From: Somniosus microcephalus | Lineage: Eukaryota | Assembly: GCA_052327205.1 (NCBI GenBank) | Contig: CM126215.1 | Location: 77,686,001 to 77,750,000, forward strand | Reading direction: 5' to 3' | DNA length: 64,000 bases | The notes under the pieces: generated by a model | What the model was told of the DNA's origin: nothing | The model's database searches: none | Seen by the model: only the letters and a program-made list of their open reading frames with translations | Shown: piece after piece, positions 44,745 to 53,700 of the stretch | Numbering within the stretch: position 1 is the stretch's first letter | How the letters are laid out: each line of letters opens with the position of its first letter | Made by a program: the position numbers and the translations under genes

Positions 44745-45292
44745 CATTGTGTGCAGTTTTGGTCGCCTTATCTGAGGAAGGATGTTCTTGCCATGGAAGG
44801 AGTTCAGTGAAGATTCACCAGGCTGATACCTGGGATGGCAGGAATGATGTATGAGGAGAGATTGGGTCGATTGGGCTTATACTCGCTGGAGCTTAGAAGA
44901 ATGAGAGGGGATCTCATTGAAACTTATAACATTCTGACAGGACTGGACAGACTAGATGCAGGAAGGATGTTCCTGATGGTCGGGGAGTCCAGAACCAGGG
45001 GTCACAGTCTAAGGATAAGAGGTAAGCCATTTAGGACAGAAATGAGGAATTTCTTCACCCAGAGAGTGGTGAACCTGTGGAATTCTCTACCACAGAAGGT
45101 AGTAGAAGCCAATTCATTAAATATATTCAAAAAGGAGTTGGATATATTTCTTAAGGCTAAAGGGATCAAGGGGTATGGGGAGAAAGCAGGGACAGGGTAC
45201 TGAATTTGGATGATCAGCCATGATCGCATTGAATGGTGGAGCAGGCTCGAGAGGCCGAATGGCCTACTCCTGCTCCTATCTTCTATGTTTCT
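44745..45292 (+). mobile_element. Young 5'-truncated CR1/HER1 LINE inserted into a Deu-SINE (~44455-45345)
   Basis: ORF 44835-45203 is nearly identical to ORF 36224-36679; SINE sequence resumes on both sides. Confidence 0.9.
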
Positions 45293-46021
45293 ATAATTCA
45301 TTCTATGTAAAATGCTTTAAGATGTGATGAGATGCTATATAAAAAGTTTTTTTACTTTTGCTTTCGACTTCCTTAAAGTCCTCCAAGGTGATTGCTGGGC
45401 AAACTTCTACCTAATTTTGGTGGGAGGGGTGGGGTTTATATTTGTTCGAGAGATGTGCAATGCTGGCAAGGACACATTTATTGTCCATAATTGCTTTGAG
45501 AAGGTAATGATGAAAAAATAGTTTTTGTGCTGATTAAGTTCAGAGATTGGTGCTGAAAATGGAATATGTACAAATTTGTCTTCCAATATCAGCATCAAGT
45601 ACTCAGATTAGGTACACTGTGGTCCAATGCATAGTAAAAGTCCTCCTGCTCTGACCCAGCCCCAAAAGAGTACTTGCATTGTATCACAATTTTTTCACTT
45701 CACTCGGTAGCCAATCTTATGATTTACTTAGTTAAATTGTCAGTGCCAAATTATGCTGGGATGCTGGTAGTTTGGTGCTGCAGGTCCAAGCCCATTCGGG
45801 AACTGGGTTAAGATCACCCAAACCAGCTTCATGAAGCAAATAACACTGGCAAAAAGGAAACACTTCTATTAACCCATGCTGAATTCAACCAGATCCCAGC
45901 AATGAAAAGAGAATTTCTCTGAATCACCTTGTCTACCTAAGCACATTTGCTGTTTACAACCTTGAAAACAGGATGGATGGGGTTGAGTTTAGAATTCTGA
46001 ACCTAAACAGCATTGTTTGCA

Positions 46022-46380
46022 GAAATAACAACAGAAAATGCTGGAAAAACTCAGCAGGCCAGGCAACATCCATGGAGAGAAATTAGAGTCAACGTTTCGG
46101 GTCAAAACCCTTTATCAAGACTAAAGAGGCACAGGGAATGAAATAGATTAAGAGGCCAGGCTGGGAGAGAACAAAAGAGAAGAGACATTAAGAGGTATTC
46201 AAAACGAGACATCTCTTAATCTATTTCATTCCCTGTGCCTCTTTAGTCTTGATAAAGGGTTTTGACCCGAAACGTTGACTCTAATTTCTCTCCACGGATG
46301 TTGCCTGGCCTGCTGAGTTTTTCCAGCATTTTCTGTTGTTATTTCGGATTTCCAGCATCTGCAGTATTTTGCTATCGTAC
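46022..46380 (+). mobile_element. Penelope-derived fold-back element 1 (133-bp inverted arms, 58-nt spacer, 3' tail)
   Basis: 46022-46154 is the reverse complement of 46213-46345 with 1 mismatch. The right arm resembles the 3' end of the Penelope at 48300-48858. Flanking repeat TTGTTTGCAGA. Confidence 0.85.
46245..46280 (+). ncRNA. Minimal type I hammerhead ribozyme motif, U3-A8 variant (mirror copy 46087-46122 on minus)
   Basis: AGTC-TTGATAA-A-GGGT(TTTG)ACCC-GAAA-CGTT-GACT: stem I AGTC/GACT, stem II, palindromic AACGTT stem III. Confidence 0.65.
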
Positions 46381-46616
46381 TGTTGTTTGCAGAGTTCACT
46401 TATCCTAGTCTAGTGATTTATTAATTTAAGGCAGAAGTTCCTAAACATTTTTTTGCTACATTCCCCTTCACAGATTGATGTCCCATTCTTTCTAAGAAGC
46501 AATATTTTTGCATTGGACAAGAGGATTTTATTTTCTCGGTTAACATAGCATTGATTAAGACAGAAAGCAATACTGATAGCACAGTTCTAGCAAACAGGCT
46601 CACTGAGACAATGGTG

Positions 46617-46714
46617 AGTCATCAAGTGTTCTTTTATGTTCAAGTTTGTTCAGTAGCACACTACCAATACTACACTACTGAATAAACCTGAACATAAAAG
46701 AACACTTGGTGACT
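46617..46714. repeat. 40-bp inverted repeat with 18-nt loop
   Basis: 46617-46656 vs 46675-46714, 37/40 complementary; weaker pairing extends outward to ~46587/46753. Confidence 0.9.
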
Positions 46715-48023
46715 ATCCTTGGTCCCGTTGAGTAGGATGAGCGTGTTTGTTAGCACACAGTTTGTGAAATCTCAATTTGGAGTTTCAACTGCAAATCAGT
46801 CTCTACATTCAAATGGTTTCTATACTTGTTTATGATGTAAGTAAGCAAAGAAAAACCCACTTCACACAGATACGTTGAGGCAAAGTGAACAAGTATTTCA
46901 AAGGCTCTTTAGAATAACTCTGGGAACTCTTTTCGAATTGAGAGCCAAAACTGTGATGAAGAGGCATAGCTTCAAACTATCTCTTAAAACAGTCACCAGA
47001 ATCATTGATTAAATTCTCTTTTAGATTCATAGCAATCTTTGCTACAAAGTCCTCTGAAAACAGATTTTGAACTCAGGCAAAATCCTACAATTTATTTGCC
47101 TCTCTTTTGGGAAAATATTTGCTGAATTTTGCGCAAAAGCTGAGACAGATGCTCCAGAATTACACCTCTAACCACTACGACCAACATTTGACTCTCGATA
47201 ATAGAAGATAATAGTTACATTGTTTGCAGCACATAACTACACCATAGCAAAAGTGTTTTTGTAATGTTCTATACTGTTTCATGCATAATGAAAATGTTAC
47301 CATTCTTACCTTGCAAAGAAATGTCAAGTTCATGGAGTTTGTCAATTATGTTGGTCAAATAGCCCAGTAAAATCTGGAAGTGGTAATTGAGCAAGTGATG
47401 GTGGTGATTCAAAATCGCTCAAAAACATGGCACTCCTCCCTCTGTTTGCAGATTCATGCCAAAACTTTACCACGTGACTGTCTGAACCAGAAGTTGCTGG
47501 TGCACTGGGGCTGGAGTACTGAAGTGCCTTTTCTGGTGCAATGGGACCCTCCCTGCATATGCTAATGACCCTCATCCCTGTAATTTTGAACAGATCCTGG
47601 AGATCTCTGCGCAGGTGGACTTAGCTCTGCCAGTCTTCTGTTGGTGGAATAGCCCGAGCAAAATATGAAGGACTCTATTCTGTTCTCGGCTTACAGTAGA
47701 CTAGAACCGCTTAGTTAGGACTGAGTTCAGGGAGTATTTATTTGATCCCTCTAGAATGTTCATGGGGCCCCATTCCTATAGCAAGTTCAGACCAAATTCT
47801 TAATGGGAATACCAAAGTGCCTACCCAATTGATCCCTTTTATTATTTGTATTATGTGTACTGATTTCAATTAGAGGTAAGGTATCCTGTATGTTTTCATA
47901 AACTGTTAACTTATTTTGGAATTGGAACTAGTTTTTGAGGTTACAAGGCTTTGTAAAATTTATTGTACATGTGTGTATGTATGTATATATGTGTATATAT
48001 ATACTAATCCAGATCATACTGGA

Positions 48024-48299: not shown

Positions 48300-48858
48300 G
48301 TGGGGAGACCCAACACAGATTGGGTGACCGCTTTGCAGAACACCTCCGTTCAGTCTGCAAGTGTGACCCCGAGCTTCCGGTCGTCTGTCATTTTAATTCT
48401 CCGCTCCACTCCCTCTCTGTCCTCAGCCTCTTGCACTGTTCCAACGAAGCTCAAGGAACAGCACCTCATCTTTCGATTAGGCACTTTACAGCCTTCTGGA
48501 CTCAACATCAAGTGCAACAATCTCAGATTGTAACCTCTGCCCCATTTTTTCAGATGGCAGCTGTTGATGATTCTGCTATTCCCTTTTATACCTCTTCTAG
48601 ACCCATCTTTTGTTCCTTGTGCCATTACCATCTCCTTTTGCTTTGTCATTTAACCTCTCCTGCCTTCCACCCTACCAACCCTTTGTTCTTTCCTCCCCTC
48701 CCCCTCTCCCTGCCCCTGTACTTGCTTAAAACCTGTTATATCTCTAACTTTTTCCAGTTCTGATGAAAGGTCATTGACCTGAAACATTAACTCTGTTTCT
48801 CTCTCCACAGATGCTGTCTGACCTGCTGAGTATTTCCAGCATTTTCTGTTTTTATTTA
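48300..48858 (+). mobile_element. Penelope-like element 3' end (GIY-YIG endonuclease remnant plus terminal repeat)
   Basis: GETQHRLGDRFAEHLRSV...HFNS and KEQHLIFRLGTLQPSGLN* across a frameshift, followed by a pyrimidine-rich pLTR. Confidence 0.85.
48756..48792 (+). ncRNA. Minimal hammerhead ribozyme motif in the Penelope pLTR (stem III mutated)
   Basis: AGTT-CTGATGA-A-AGGTC(ATT)GACCT-GAAA-CATT-AACT. Confidence 0.7.
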
Positions 48859-50472
48859 AGAGCAATACTGTCCACATTTGGTAAAGGTTTCCCTTAAATC
48901 ATGCACTCAGCACAGATTATGACAACACACTGTTGAGTCCTGCACAAGCTATCATTCATTGATTATTTCAAGTGTAGTCAACTGGACTAGCAGCTGCCTT
49001 TACAATTCCTTCTGGATGCCAGCTATCCACAATTACAGGGTTCCATCTGTCAAAATCTGCAGAGTGGGCCAATTGCTTGGCACCAGGGCAACAAAAAAAT
49101 CAGCAAACAAGATTCCCTTTGGGCCTAGCAGGCTATGTTCTTTACTGCCCTGGTTCAATGGATATGGTTATCTATGTATAGACAATATTTTGTTTTTGTT
49201 CTTTGAGACATTGGAATCCTTGCTTCAGACTAATCAACTAATAAAATGCCACTCGCATAGTGGACCTGAAAGTACACGGGCTACTGATCCTGGCAGTTGT
49301 GCCAGGATTGCAAATGCCAGAGTATGTGGGTCATGAGGAGGTCACTCAATTTAAATATTCCTAGCAGGCATCTATGCTAACGGGTGCACCTCGGGCACCT
49401 GCCTGCCGCAGGAGTCTGCAAAATATGGCAATGGTGGCTGGGCTGGGGGGATGTTGGGAAACCACACCCCTCCCCCACATGACTGTGCCCCCCCATGCTT
49501 GCCAAGGGGGGCCACTATTTTTTAACAAAGTTTTGGAATTCCTCCCCTTCAGGGGTCCAGATCATAAGTCAAACCTGGACCCCCATTGTGGGCCCCACAG
49601 CTGCCCCTCCTTATTCTGGGTGTACTGACTGTCAATCCCTGACCAACATTTCCCAGGTTGGGCCCATGGGAACTCCTTGGGAGACCCGGCTTACTCCATG
49701 TCAATGGCTTCATTTGGGACAGGTGGAAGCTCCACCCCAAACATAGGCCAAACAAAACACCCAGGCGAAGTTGGGACTTGGTCCCGCCTGAGTTTGCAGC
49801 TCATCTACTGTACTTCTGCTGGAGTTGCAGTGGGAGTGCGCTGGAAAGGCTCAAGGATTTTCATCCCTGAAATTTGAAGCAATGCTGCTCTAGGAAGCAG
49901 GCATGTAGTTGTGTTCTTCACCTGAGGTGGAATTATTCAATGTGAGGGTTAGAGCCTAGCCAAGAAATGTTATGGTGGGTGGACTGTGCTCTAACATACT
50001 ATCCCAATCCTACCTTTGAGGAAGAGATTTTCATTCGATCTGTCTGATCTGAATAAATATTCCATTTCAATCGTGAAAGAAACGTGTCCCCATATGCCAT
50101 GCCACACCGCCTAGTTTCCTCTCTTTCGCACTCCCCCTACCCTCGCCAACAGAGTGCAGAATTGAATCCATTCTGTTGCTGCTGTAATTTGTTGGAGGTT
50201 GAAAGGATAGAATTCTAATATAGTGCGCTCCATATCTTAGCACTTTTACCTTGAATGTTAACCTGTTACGGCACAGTTCCTTTTAGGATTATAGTAGATG
50301 TTCTTGAATGGATTAATTAACTTTTGTTACTACCTTGCTGTAGACCATTACTTTCAATAGAGTTTTCTTTTGTGATTAGAATTTAAATATGCTCGATCAG
50401 ATGCAGTTTATAGTCTTGAAAAATCCAAATGATGCAAGCCCTCTACTTTCAGTTCAGATACGGCCTCTTTCT

Positions 50473-50706
50473 AAATAACAACAGAAAACGCTGGAAAAAC
50501 TCAGCAGGCCAGGCAACATCCGTGGAGAGAGAAATAGAGTTAACGTTTCAGGTCGATGACCCTTCATCAGAACTTTGATGAAGGGTCATCGACCTGAAAC
50601 GTTAACTCTATTTCTCTCTCCACGGATGTTGCCTGGCCTGCTGAGTTTTTCCAGTGTTTTCTGTTGTTATTTCGGATTTCCAGCATCCGCAGTATTTTGC
50701 TATCGT
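50473..50706 (+). mobile_element. Penelope-derived fold-back element 2 (97-bp arms, 6-nt spacer, 3' tail)
   Basis: 50473-50569 is the reverse complement of 50576-50672 with 1 mismatch; same tail as element 1 (ggatttccagcatcYgcagtattttgctatcgt); flanking repeat CTCTTTCT. Confidence 0.85.
50538..50574 (-). ncRNA. Minimal hammerhead ribozyme motif, intact core
   Basis: Minus strand AGTT-CTGATGA-A-GGGTC(ATC)GACCT-GAAA-CGTT-AACT. Confidence 0.75.
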
Positions 50707-53700
50707 GTAAGGGCTCTTTCTGTTTAGTTGTGCTCATTTATGTTTCTTTTTCATTTTTGTCCACCGTTTTCACTCATACTCATTAGGTTAATATATCCAG
50801 CGGACTGCATATTTTTATTTAACCATTGACCTGTTTTCTGTAATAAGTATTGGTAACTGTAATGTATTCTATGCTTCCACTGGTATATTGATTGCTGAGT
50901 TTGTCATGTCTGCAGGGATGGAGGTTATGGATTTGAAAGTGTCACAATATATTAATAACTGTGTCCAATACCATAGATGCTGAGCCATTAAAGGCTCTAA
51001 GCAAGCTCCGTAGAATACCAGTTCCTTTTCTAGAGGCCCTTTCAATACATGTTCCACTTAATTCACCACTTAACTGGCAGTTCTGAAGATTGCTAGAAAA
51101 ACTAGAAGACAAAGGTGAAGTGGAAACCTATTTACACAAAATATGGTAGACAGACAAATTTCATCAAGATAATTACTATGCTAGGAGTAAAACTAGGGAA
51201 TGACAACATTTTATATCGAACATTGTGCTTACTTTTAGAGTTGCATAGGTGTGGGTTTAACAGTACCTACTATCAAAAGAGTGGATGGGGGGCACTAAAA
51301 CACAGCAGACTCTTGGTAAAATGTGAAATTGGTTTGCTTTCTACTAACTTCAATATTGTTGAAGGCTTGGTTCAGGTTGCTTGGCCCACCATTTTGGGAT
51401 GTAAATTACTGTAAAAGGCTTGTGTTTGGTCAGTTAGTTCAGTTATACTATAAATCAAAATACAGTACTGATAAACTGGTTTAATTGTACACTACTATAT
51501 TTTTGAGTTCAGTCAATAACAAGGCTGAACAATTTTATACTGTTCTGACAATCCAGCTCCTACCTAACCTCAACACGAGCAATACTTCCTGAACTGTTAG
51601 CAGTATAGAGAGATGGTGCATGACACAGAAAGCAACCTAAAGTGATGAAAAGAAATAAAACTTGTCAACCTGTCAAATTATTTATGCTGCAATATATTGT
51701 CAAAGCTAAAACTCTAATGCCTACTGTATAATCAAATAATTATAGTATATAGATAGAAATTATATTGGGAGTGCTCCCCCCCAGGCCCCACAAGGAGTTC
51801 TTGGGCCTTCCCAGCCCCGGCCTCCCCCAATTGCCATGGACCCCACACCCCGATCACCTCCAGCCCTGCTCCCACTGACTGCCGGGGACTGACCCCATGG
51901 CTCCCTGACTGTGGCCTCCTGCCGCCAAGTTCTCGCTCCCGCCCACTAGCCAAGTAGTGGCTCTGGCTGGGTGTTAGGCAACCGCTGGGAACTTTTATTT
52001 AAATTAGGTCCTGCTGTTAAGATCCGCAGAGCTTCCACATCCACGGACTCTCGCAATGTGCCACCCGCTTTGGGCCACGTGTGCATTGTTCCAGCTCCCC
52101 TTTTAAAATCGGGGCCTCGAGTGTGAGTGAGAGGGAGATTATTGGAGCTAGAGGTGAGAAGCATTTCCCCAGCTGATGAACTTGTTTTTATATATCCTGT
52201 CCAGAGAAGTGTTAGAAGGAAAATCACAGAGGTGGGAGACAAAATTCTAGTTGTAGATGGGCTTGGAAGTTAAGAGCAGTTGAGAGGGAAAAAAGTAAAT
52301 GTTTTGCAGCAAAGAAGAAACCTTATACCTTTCAGGCAGCTTTAGCAATAGAGGGATTGAGGTCAGCGGAGATATTGTCACCAAGAGTGCTGTTAGATGA
52401 AGAAAGACTGAGGTTGGCGTGATCTAAGATAAAGCAATATTCTAATGGTTAAACTGGAGAGACACGAGGAGACTTTTTTCACAAATTGAAAGAAACAAAA
52501 TTTTCATTGCCTCATTGAAATCCATGGAGATCAACATATGGTGATTCAGCCATTATTTTGCAACAGGAACACAGGTTGTGAATGCTGAGGATATGCACTC
52601 TGAAGGAACATAAGAAATAGGAGCTGGAGTTGGCCATTTGGCCCTTCGAGCCTGCTCCGCCATTGATCAACATAGAGTGGAATCAACAGCAAGAGTGGAT
52701 GGAGTGTATAATCAACGGAAGAGATCATTGATATGAAGGAAAAACAAAATGGCAGAGGACAGGTGTTAATGAAGAAAAAGTCAATGTAAAAAAATTCAGA
52801 AGATGAGCAATCAACTACAACACAACAATTTGAGAGGAAACTAAATAGGTGTGAACATTACAACATTGGTGGAGGCTAAATGATGGTAGCTTGTTTAAAA
52901 GTGTATGGCGCCAGACCCTGTCAATGACTTTGGAGATGCCCCCAAGATATATAATTGTTCAAGAGCAGAGTTTTGCAGGAGGGTAACATACAACAGGATT
53001 ACCAATGGAATGGCTACCCTAAAAAACATACTGGCAATCAGAGATTAAGTCAGAGCATTCAAGATGTTGAATAGTTTGAGAGTTAACAGCTGCTTCCATA
53101 AATTTAGATGGTCAATGCGGCATCAACGTGAAGGGTTAGAAGGGTCACTTTTCTTAGGGACAGTCTCATTGTGCATGCTGTCTAGCAGGAGCGAATGAGG
53201 AGATTTGGGGTGCAGAAATCAAACAGCCTAACAGTATTTGAGAGAGCAGAACATAATAGTTAGGACTAAACTGGTTTTGGATGCAGGTCTTCATAGAACA
53301 TAACAATATGTAGAATAAAAATCCTCACAGCTTCCTAGACTCCTGATTCATGCACAACAGGAGGAGGGATGGCCAGCTGCCTGTTTCCCCATTCCCTTCC
53401 CTCCTAACGGGGAGATGCCTGGCCTCCATTTGGCATCTCACCATAGCAATATGGATGATTTTGTCAATTTAGTAGCATTGAGAAATTTTATAGATAAATT
53501 ACTGTAATTCCAAAGAGTTAGAAAGAACTTTCCACAAGTATGAAAACTTTAAAATATGGACAATACTAATGAAGTGCCAACATGCATCTCCACAATGGAG
53601 AATGGAGATTCAGTCCTATATGTCACAATATGAACTCAAATTTAATTAAACGCTTTTCTTCATTAAATAACTGAAAATAAAATCCCATTACTTAAAACAT

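Follow-up and report, generated by a model that had tools for sequence, protein, structure and literature searches.

An inverted, one-tailed pair of truncated Penelope-like 3' ends in Somniosus microcephalus and a survey of its family

Introduction

A 64,000-nt stretch of the Somniosus microcephalus genome (contig CM126215.1, positions 77,686,001 to 77,750,000; hereafter the window) carries a hairpin with a hammerhead ribozyme motif on each strand (element 1) and a second, shorter hairpin (element 2). The question is whether such a palindrome copies itself or is the product of a single insertion by a larger retrotransposon. A first-pass annotation of the sequence had left two readings standing, a reproducible inversion step during Penelope integration and a non-autonomous, retrozyme-like palindromic family. 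Both have precedents in the available parts of the literature: head-to-head inverted pLTRs with palindromes at the joint, a 31-bp one-sided tail, and 8-10-bp duplications (PMC3846280), a general scheme also given for EN+ Penelope-like elements (PMC8557442), and metazoan retrozymes, described as tandem repeats yielding circular RNA (PMC7229834).

Structure and target site of element 1

The near-perfect hairpin was confirmed, with 133-nt arms at 46022-46154 and 46213-46345, 58 nt between them, and a single mismatch of CpG type (46072 vs 46295). The unpaired tail, first put at ~35 nt, occupies 46346-46381 and measures 36 nt. The parts are as follows.

46013..46023, plus strand: left copy of the target duplication (TSD), 11 bp, its last 2 bases common with the arm start; from sequence and empty site
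46022..46211, minus strand: inverted, tail-less, 5'-truncated copy of a Penelope-like 3' end, 190 nt, taking in the 58-nt "spacer"
46087..46122, minus strand: putative minimal type I hammerhead motif with U3-A8 core, from sequence; mirror of 46245-46280
46212..46212, no strand: joint base matching neither copy (matches cover query 1-190, then 192 onwards)
46213..46345, plus strand: direct 5'-truncated copy of the Penelope-like 3' end, 133 nt
46245..46280, plus strand: putative minimal type I hammerhead motif with U3-A8 core, from sequence; stems I and II in the fold
46346..46381, plus strand: Penelope "tail", 36 nt, running on into the ORF in full-length copies
46383..46393, plus strand: right copy of the TSD; from sequence and empty site

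The flank repeat TTGTTTGCAGA occurs at both 46013-46023 and 46383-46393, and what had been called TSD-like is a true 11-bp target duplication because a contig from a related organism (run X5) joins 46012 straight to 46383, giving an empty site with one copy of the repeat. A 13-bp duplication altered by CpG decay was considered and discarded, as the empty site gave 11 bp.

The 58 nt between the arms had been read as a separate spacer and are instead parental sequence, into which the left arm carries on. In a DNA search of the animal's own 6.45-Gb genome, in which 40 of 1102 candidates were scored, query 1-190 (46022-46211) was intact at 40 or more other places, matching in one piece at 96-99% identity, and the sequence upstream of it leads to a GIY-YIG ORF. 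The joint between the two copies behaved differently from its parts: a 28-mer across it, with up to 2 mismatches allowed, matched the genome once. The two palindromes most similar to element 1 had different breakpoints and their own 14-bp target duplications, with the tail on the long arm in one of them. With a central joint that has no second occurrence in the genome, element 1 is not a self-copying palindrome; the same internal joint at many dispersed loci, each with its own TSD, was not found for it, and the proposed retrozyme-like family is unsupported here.

The palindrome could also be an artefact of the assembly or of a fold-back read, given that none of the contigs listed spans the central joint, which rests on the assembly. 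Against this, contigs from runs X1 and X2 bridged both outer junctions with the opposite orientations that were expected, a single CpG-type difference separates the two arms, the TSD matches the empty site, and the one-sided tail obeys the rule of the family (below), so that an artefact is scarcely credible.

Two further inverted repeats were observed nearby. An unrelated hairpin at window positions 46599-46732 (58-nt arms, 83% alike, 18-nt loop), 200 bp right of element 1, is older than element 1, since the related organism carries this hairpin and lacks element 1. An inverted pair at 45232-45292 and 52604-52664 (61 nt, 84% alike) is probably two copies of another repeat.

The parent Penelope-like family

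Element 1 displayed four features of Penelope-like insertions: an inverted pLTR with 5' truncation, a 36-nt tail at one end, a hammerhead motif, and an 11-bp TSD. The suspected link to Penelope was further borne out by its parent, which by its sequence appears to be an autonomous Penelope-like retrotransposon family with GIY-YIG, the RT preceding the endonuclease in one ORF. Long copies of this parent (L086 and L094) were found in pieces broken by stops, and the pieces of L086 matched GIY-YIG (E 2e-4, 22.0 bits against a cut-off of 22.6) and RVT_1 (E 0.004), both below the curated Pfam cut-offs. In L086 a 262-aa open frame (7021-6233, minus strand) begins in the arm end plus tail, which fits the definition of a Penelope tail. 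The absence of an ORF reported at first holds for the insertion, and its arm end and tail are nonetheless the first codons of the parent ORF. Available descriptions of EN+ Penelope-like elements agree in these points, with the pLTR and tail holding the first codons of an ORF that encodes RT and then GIY-YIG, and EN+ insertions resemble element 1 in their head-to-head inverted 5'-truncated copy, 30-40-nt tail at one end, and short TSD (PMC3846280; PMC8557442), whereas both copies in element 1 are too short to keep the ORF body.

A Cys-rich, CxxxxCxxC-like linker precedes the endonuclease in L086 (4106-5176). The zinc-finger-like linker motif is named for Neptune and Nematis in the text available from PMC8557442, and the linker of the parent suggests the Neptune group. 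The family is large, with at least 17,073 copies: this was the exact genome count of a 36-mer from the downstream region, against 623 for a 34-mer that spans the 46245-46280 motif and represents the hammerhead of the subfamily. The window itself holds a further solo copy.

48316..48857, plus strand: solo tail-less copy of a related subfamily, ~540 nt, 5' end approximate; same 3' end, no inverted partner

Several other arrangements of the family were observed. Nine loci (L007, L011-L016, L020, and L021; contigs C35, C43, and C191) had kilobases of common flank around the same Penelope insertion and are large duplicated units, not fresh insertions. Among 30 rows in which the tail runs into the ORF (L245-L274), 13 rows, or ~10 insertions, stopped 76-176 nt into the ORF, suggesting a third zone of 3' ends. 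At L261:1221-1996 (G000:C1, ~99,162,950-99,163,730) three head-to-tail 262-bp units, 98% alike, each comprise the end that bears the hammerhead, the tail, and the first ~93 nt of the ORF; this array is a retrozyme-like layout built from Penelope's own pLTR-ORF junction.

Head-to-head pairs and their origin

Two samples of the family were surveyed, sample 1 with 90 loci covering 94 of the first 100 places listed for the hammerhead 34-mer (623 in total), and sample 2 with 88 loci covering the first 100 places listed for the downstream 36-mer (102 views, 5 duplicates dropped, 97 kept). The 178 loci contained at least 46 head-to-head pairs, a lower bound since the visible pairs L038, L094, and L126 were missed. 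The tail was at exactly one end in 45 of the 46, and the tail-less end lay no more than 2 nt from one position in 36. The reproducible step at integration that had been suggested is supported. An exact flank repeat of at least 6 bp was present in 41 of the pairs and measured 13-15 bp in 20, so that target duplications peak higher than the 8-10 bp of the rotifer examples (PMC3846280). The fixed start shared by elements 1 and 2 is simply the family-wide tail-less 3' end, at which solo copies also usually finish.

Arm lengths ranged from 28 to 1910 nt and a breakpoint pair was repeated only in L156/L157, a single insertion locally duplicated with its flanks. The first-pass annotation had named individual breakpoints at every copy as the finding that would count against its palindromic family, and for element 1, with nearly every sampled pair having its own, that is the outcome; recurrent joints did exist in the size class of element 2 (below). 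Element 1 is a real, ordinary Penelope-like insertion and no self-copying palindromic element. It is very probably a one-off head-to-head pair of 5'-truncated 3'-end copies of the autonomous Penelope-like retrotransposon, set between an 11-bp TSD and likely made by the element's own endonuclease and RT priming from both cut strands.

The proposed course of events is carried over by analogy from a Poseidon-clade element of Anolis, whose PAc protein cuts and extends both strands, with reverse transcription starting at two sites bounding the tail (available text of PMC11167929). By this biochemistry the endonuclease would nick both strands ~11-15 bp apart, and each nicked 3' end would prime a cDNA, the two starting at opposite edges of the tail (outer and inner). 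Synthesis of both would stop early, in element 1 at 169 and 190 nt, and repair would then join the free ends of the two cDNAs. Two-site initiation on two cut strands would produce the one-tail rule, and the family of element 1 resembles PAc (Anolis carolinensis) in having two fixed 3' ends bounding the tail; PAc is of Poseidon, whereas the parent of element 1, known here from its sequence, has the linker pointing to Neptune.

The same parent, again in a one-off insertion, could instead have given an inverted arm by self-priming, with no second primed cDNA, through snap-back, template switching of one cDNA, or the antisense-template self-priming of PMC3846280 (as far as its available text goes). 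Such an origin would suit the likeness of the arms, which differed by no more than 6% in 32 of 39 pairs, and the correlation of their lengths, which lay within 12% of each other in 19 of 44 pairs (the 46 minus L157 and the one tail-free pair) vs a permutation mean of 7.2 and, away from the truncation hot spot described below, in 7 of 25 vs 2.1 expected (p 0.002). Correlated lengths are not predicted by two fully independent cDNAs, and both cDNAs of a pair may derive from one RNA. The geometry of element 1 argues the other way: simple snap-back could not have made it because the tail-less arm is the longer and the tail could not be copied from it. The longer arm was tail-less in 20 of the 44 pairs, tailed in 13, and about equal in 11, and a single snap-back is excluded for the 20; a further jump back to the RNA would be required. 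In addition, at least one pair has arms from different subfamily variants. The arms of the short palindrome L078:3943-4137 have 9 differences in 90 nt, and for each arm some other locus is a closer match (4 and 2 differences), by a rough, ungapped nearest-neighbour comparison, which suggests two RNA templates in one insertion. Self-priming as the full account of element 1 is therefore very unlikely, and priming from both cut strands is retained.

Hammerhead motifs

A ribozyme motif had been proposed on each strand of the element 1 hairpin. This stands, as one minimal type I hammerhead motif per strand (46245-46280, plus; 46087-46122, minus) can be read from the sequence and is putative. In element 2 only the minus-strand motif is intact. 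In element 1 the hammerhead is on both strands because an arm is inverted, and this two-strand arrangement is a by-product of the inversion. Stems I and II appeared in the fold, with an energy z of -0.8 that is not significant, and Rfam at the gathering score gave 0 matches in the 64-kb window. The whole of element 1 folds at a predicted -253 kcal/mol with both motifs paired, and its transcript is accordingly predicted to trap both in the 133-bp duplex. No RNA reads lay on the unique flanks of element 1 in run X21 (the tissue of that run), and ordinary RNA-seq reads that overlap the element continue into the sequence of other copies.

Across subfamilies (L127-L214) the hammerhead core covaried, being U3-A8 in 43, C3-G8 in 18, and mismatched in 4 of the 65 scorable among 97 copies, a pattern suggesting that the ribozyme was under selection in the parent lineage. 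The minimal type I hammerheads of PLE pLTRs are like those of element 1 in their missing helix III loop, U3-A8 core, and opposite-strand pairs; the available text of PMC4209133 gives the U3-A8 variant and places minimal hammerheads on opposite strands 100-700 bp apart, mostly in truncated copies. Metazoan non-LTR retrozymes are also short and non-coding, with a type I hammerhead and a proposed PLE mobilisation (PMC7229834, available parts). Their units are head-to-tail tandem repeats with canonical same-strand hammerheads and circular RNA, whereas element 1 is a head-to-head pair of Penelope ends with minimal opposite-strand motifs and a unique joint. Element 1 was accordingly rejected as a metazoan retrozyme, its copies being head-to-head and its hammerheads on opposite strands.

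A truncation hot spot at the hammerhead 5' edge

In sample 1, many copies had their 5' end at a distance of 96-100 nt from the tail-less end, where the hammerhead has its 5' edge. Sample 1 is biased in that its copies had to reach this far; sample 2, anchored further 3', is free of this bias. There, 17 of 93 copies (the 97 minus 2 internal deletions and 2 views of the duplicated L157) ended within 18 nt around the AG before stem I, or 0.0134 per base, a window chosen after seeing sample 2, while the 5-nt window from sample 1 holds 7 of the 17. Upstream of this window 16 ends amount to 0.0024 per base (p 2e-6), and downstream 14 ends amount to ~0.004 (p 4e-4). This approximately five-fold enrichment is at the hammerhead 5' edge, a conserved pyrimidine tract plus YAG, and not at the cleavage site. 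The D. virilis intron end was mapped to the 5' end of helix I in the available text of PMC4209133, the same place as the pile-up at the motif 5' edge in the family of element 1.

Three other sources of such ends were considered and found unsupported. If hammerhead cleavage products had served as templates, ends would lie at the predicted cut site, yet a single copy of the 97 ends there. For a fixed transcription start, 2 of the 19 tail-into-ORF copies reaching the zone ended there and 0 at the AG; among the RNA read starts listed from two RNA runs there was no pile-up at the hot spot. If a shared first exon were spliced in there, the joints would have upstream sequence in common; none was found in 30 joints nor in the 17 hot-spot joints, inverted tail pieces aside, and none of the 15 joints listed (11 others lay beyond the listing) was a GT..AG joint into the hot-spot AG. 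The base before GTC was A in 55, G in 22, T in 18, and C in 5 of the first 100 of 261 places listed (a hand count), and the G excess, considered as a cap-derived extra G, is confounded by templated pieces.

The hot-spot joints contained inverted tail pieces, short templated duplications, and fold-backs. In L217, L223, L231, L240, L048, and L119 the hammerhead-edge truncation is joined to a short inverted tail-only piece of 8-26 nt, matching what a very short second cDNA would give. In the literature searched, which mostly excluded subscription papers, the hot spot was undescribed, and the supplement of PMC11167929 (Fig. S2 coverage plots) could show the same effect. As a tentative proposal, which we think rather more apt to fail than to hold, the Penelope hammerhead might mark a programmed reverse-transcription stop that mass-produces the ~100-nt solo copies and ~235-bp palindromes with recurrent joints.

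Element 2 and recurrent short palindromes

Element 2 sits on the hot spot and element 1 does not. It has the same left start and tail as element 1, with 97-nt arms (50473-50569 and 50576-50672), one mismatch, and 6 nt between.

50473..50574, minus strand: inverted tail-less copy, stopping at the hammerhead 5' edge; intact C3-G8 motif at 50538-50574, putative
50576..50706, plus strand: direct copy with broken hammerhead, plus tail; likely TSD 50462-50472 / 50711-50721

In the plus arm, stem I is missing its 5' strand and the core is mismatched (U3.G8). The likely target duplication is exact over 8 bp and 11 bp long with one mismatch; no empty site was seen for it. The arms share variants absent from the other sampled loci, a further point for self-priming, as are the short inverted or duplicated pieces at hot-spot joints.

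Hammerhead-centred palindromes of ~235 bp like element 2 are numerous, and some have recurrent joints. Within one hot-spot subfamily the commonest joint was present in 19 of the 50 places listed (of 83), which had 25 joint types, and within a second in 12 of 44 places, with 26 joint types (19/50 and 12/44 being hand counts from listings), while the joint of element 2 was at 5 places within 1 mismatch. Such identity at several short palindromes counts against the full explanation given above and would be expected if fold-back units, at least of the ~235-bp class, were non-autonomous mini-elements transcribed and re-inserted whole by Penelope enzymes. In some palindromes, too, an arm is missing its outermost part, the outcome expected if a palindromic template were truncated at its 5' end. 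Among 15 hot-spot palindromes, 5 had a tail-less arm that did not reach the usual end, a pattern better suited to snap-back or internal priming. Set against re-insertion are the unique joint of element 1, the many joint types in both subfamilies, and the position of the commonest joint, which is the same in two subfamilies of different sequence and in one comes after 4 bp of self-complementary sequence closing a 2-nt loop. The five loci examined with the commonest joint varied in the arm bearing the tail (2 vs 3) and in their outer ends, and the five joints of element-2 type differed in stem II variant. A PAc template, moreover, requires the first 172 nt of the ORF (PMC11167929, available text), which palindromic units are without.

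Mobile palindromic mini-elements are thus improbable, though a few palindromes may have been re-mobilised; repeated independent formation of the short-palindrome joints is the better reading, and the recurrent joints likely come from short self-complementarity. Element 2 would be the same type of product as element 1, formed at the hammerhead-edge hot spot, where cDNA snap-back may contribute, as it probably does to the short palindrome class.

Implications

Element 1 itself matters little, being one among thousands of truncated Penelope insertions in an arrangement already published, as are its inverted pLTR, one-sided tail, opposite-strand minimal hammerheads, and U3-A8 core. It is a clean example, in which the empty site fixes the TSD and the geometry excludes simple snap-back. 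The surrounding population is more useful, through its one-tail rule and its hot spot, the latter a cheap handle on what the PLE hammerhead is for. If the proposed programmed stop is true, the pile-up of 5' ends would be the genomic footprint of a role of the ribozyme, or of an RNA end, in the Penelope cycle.
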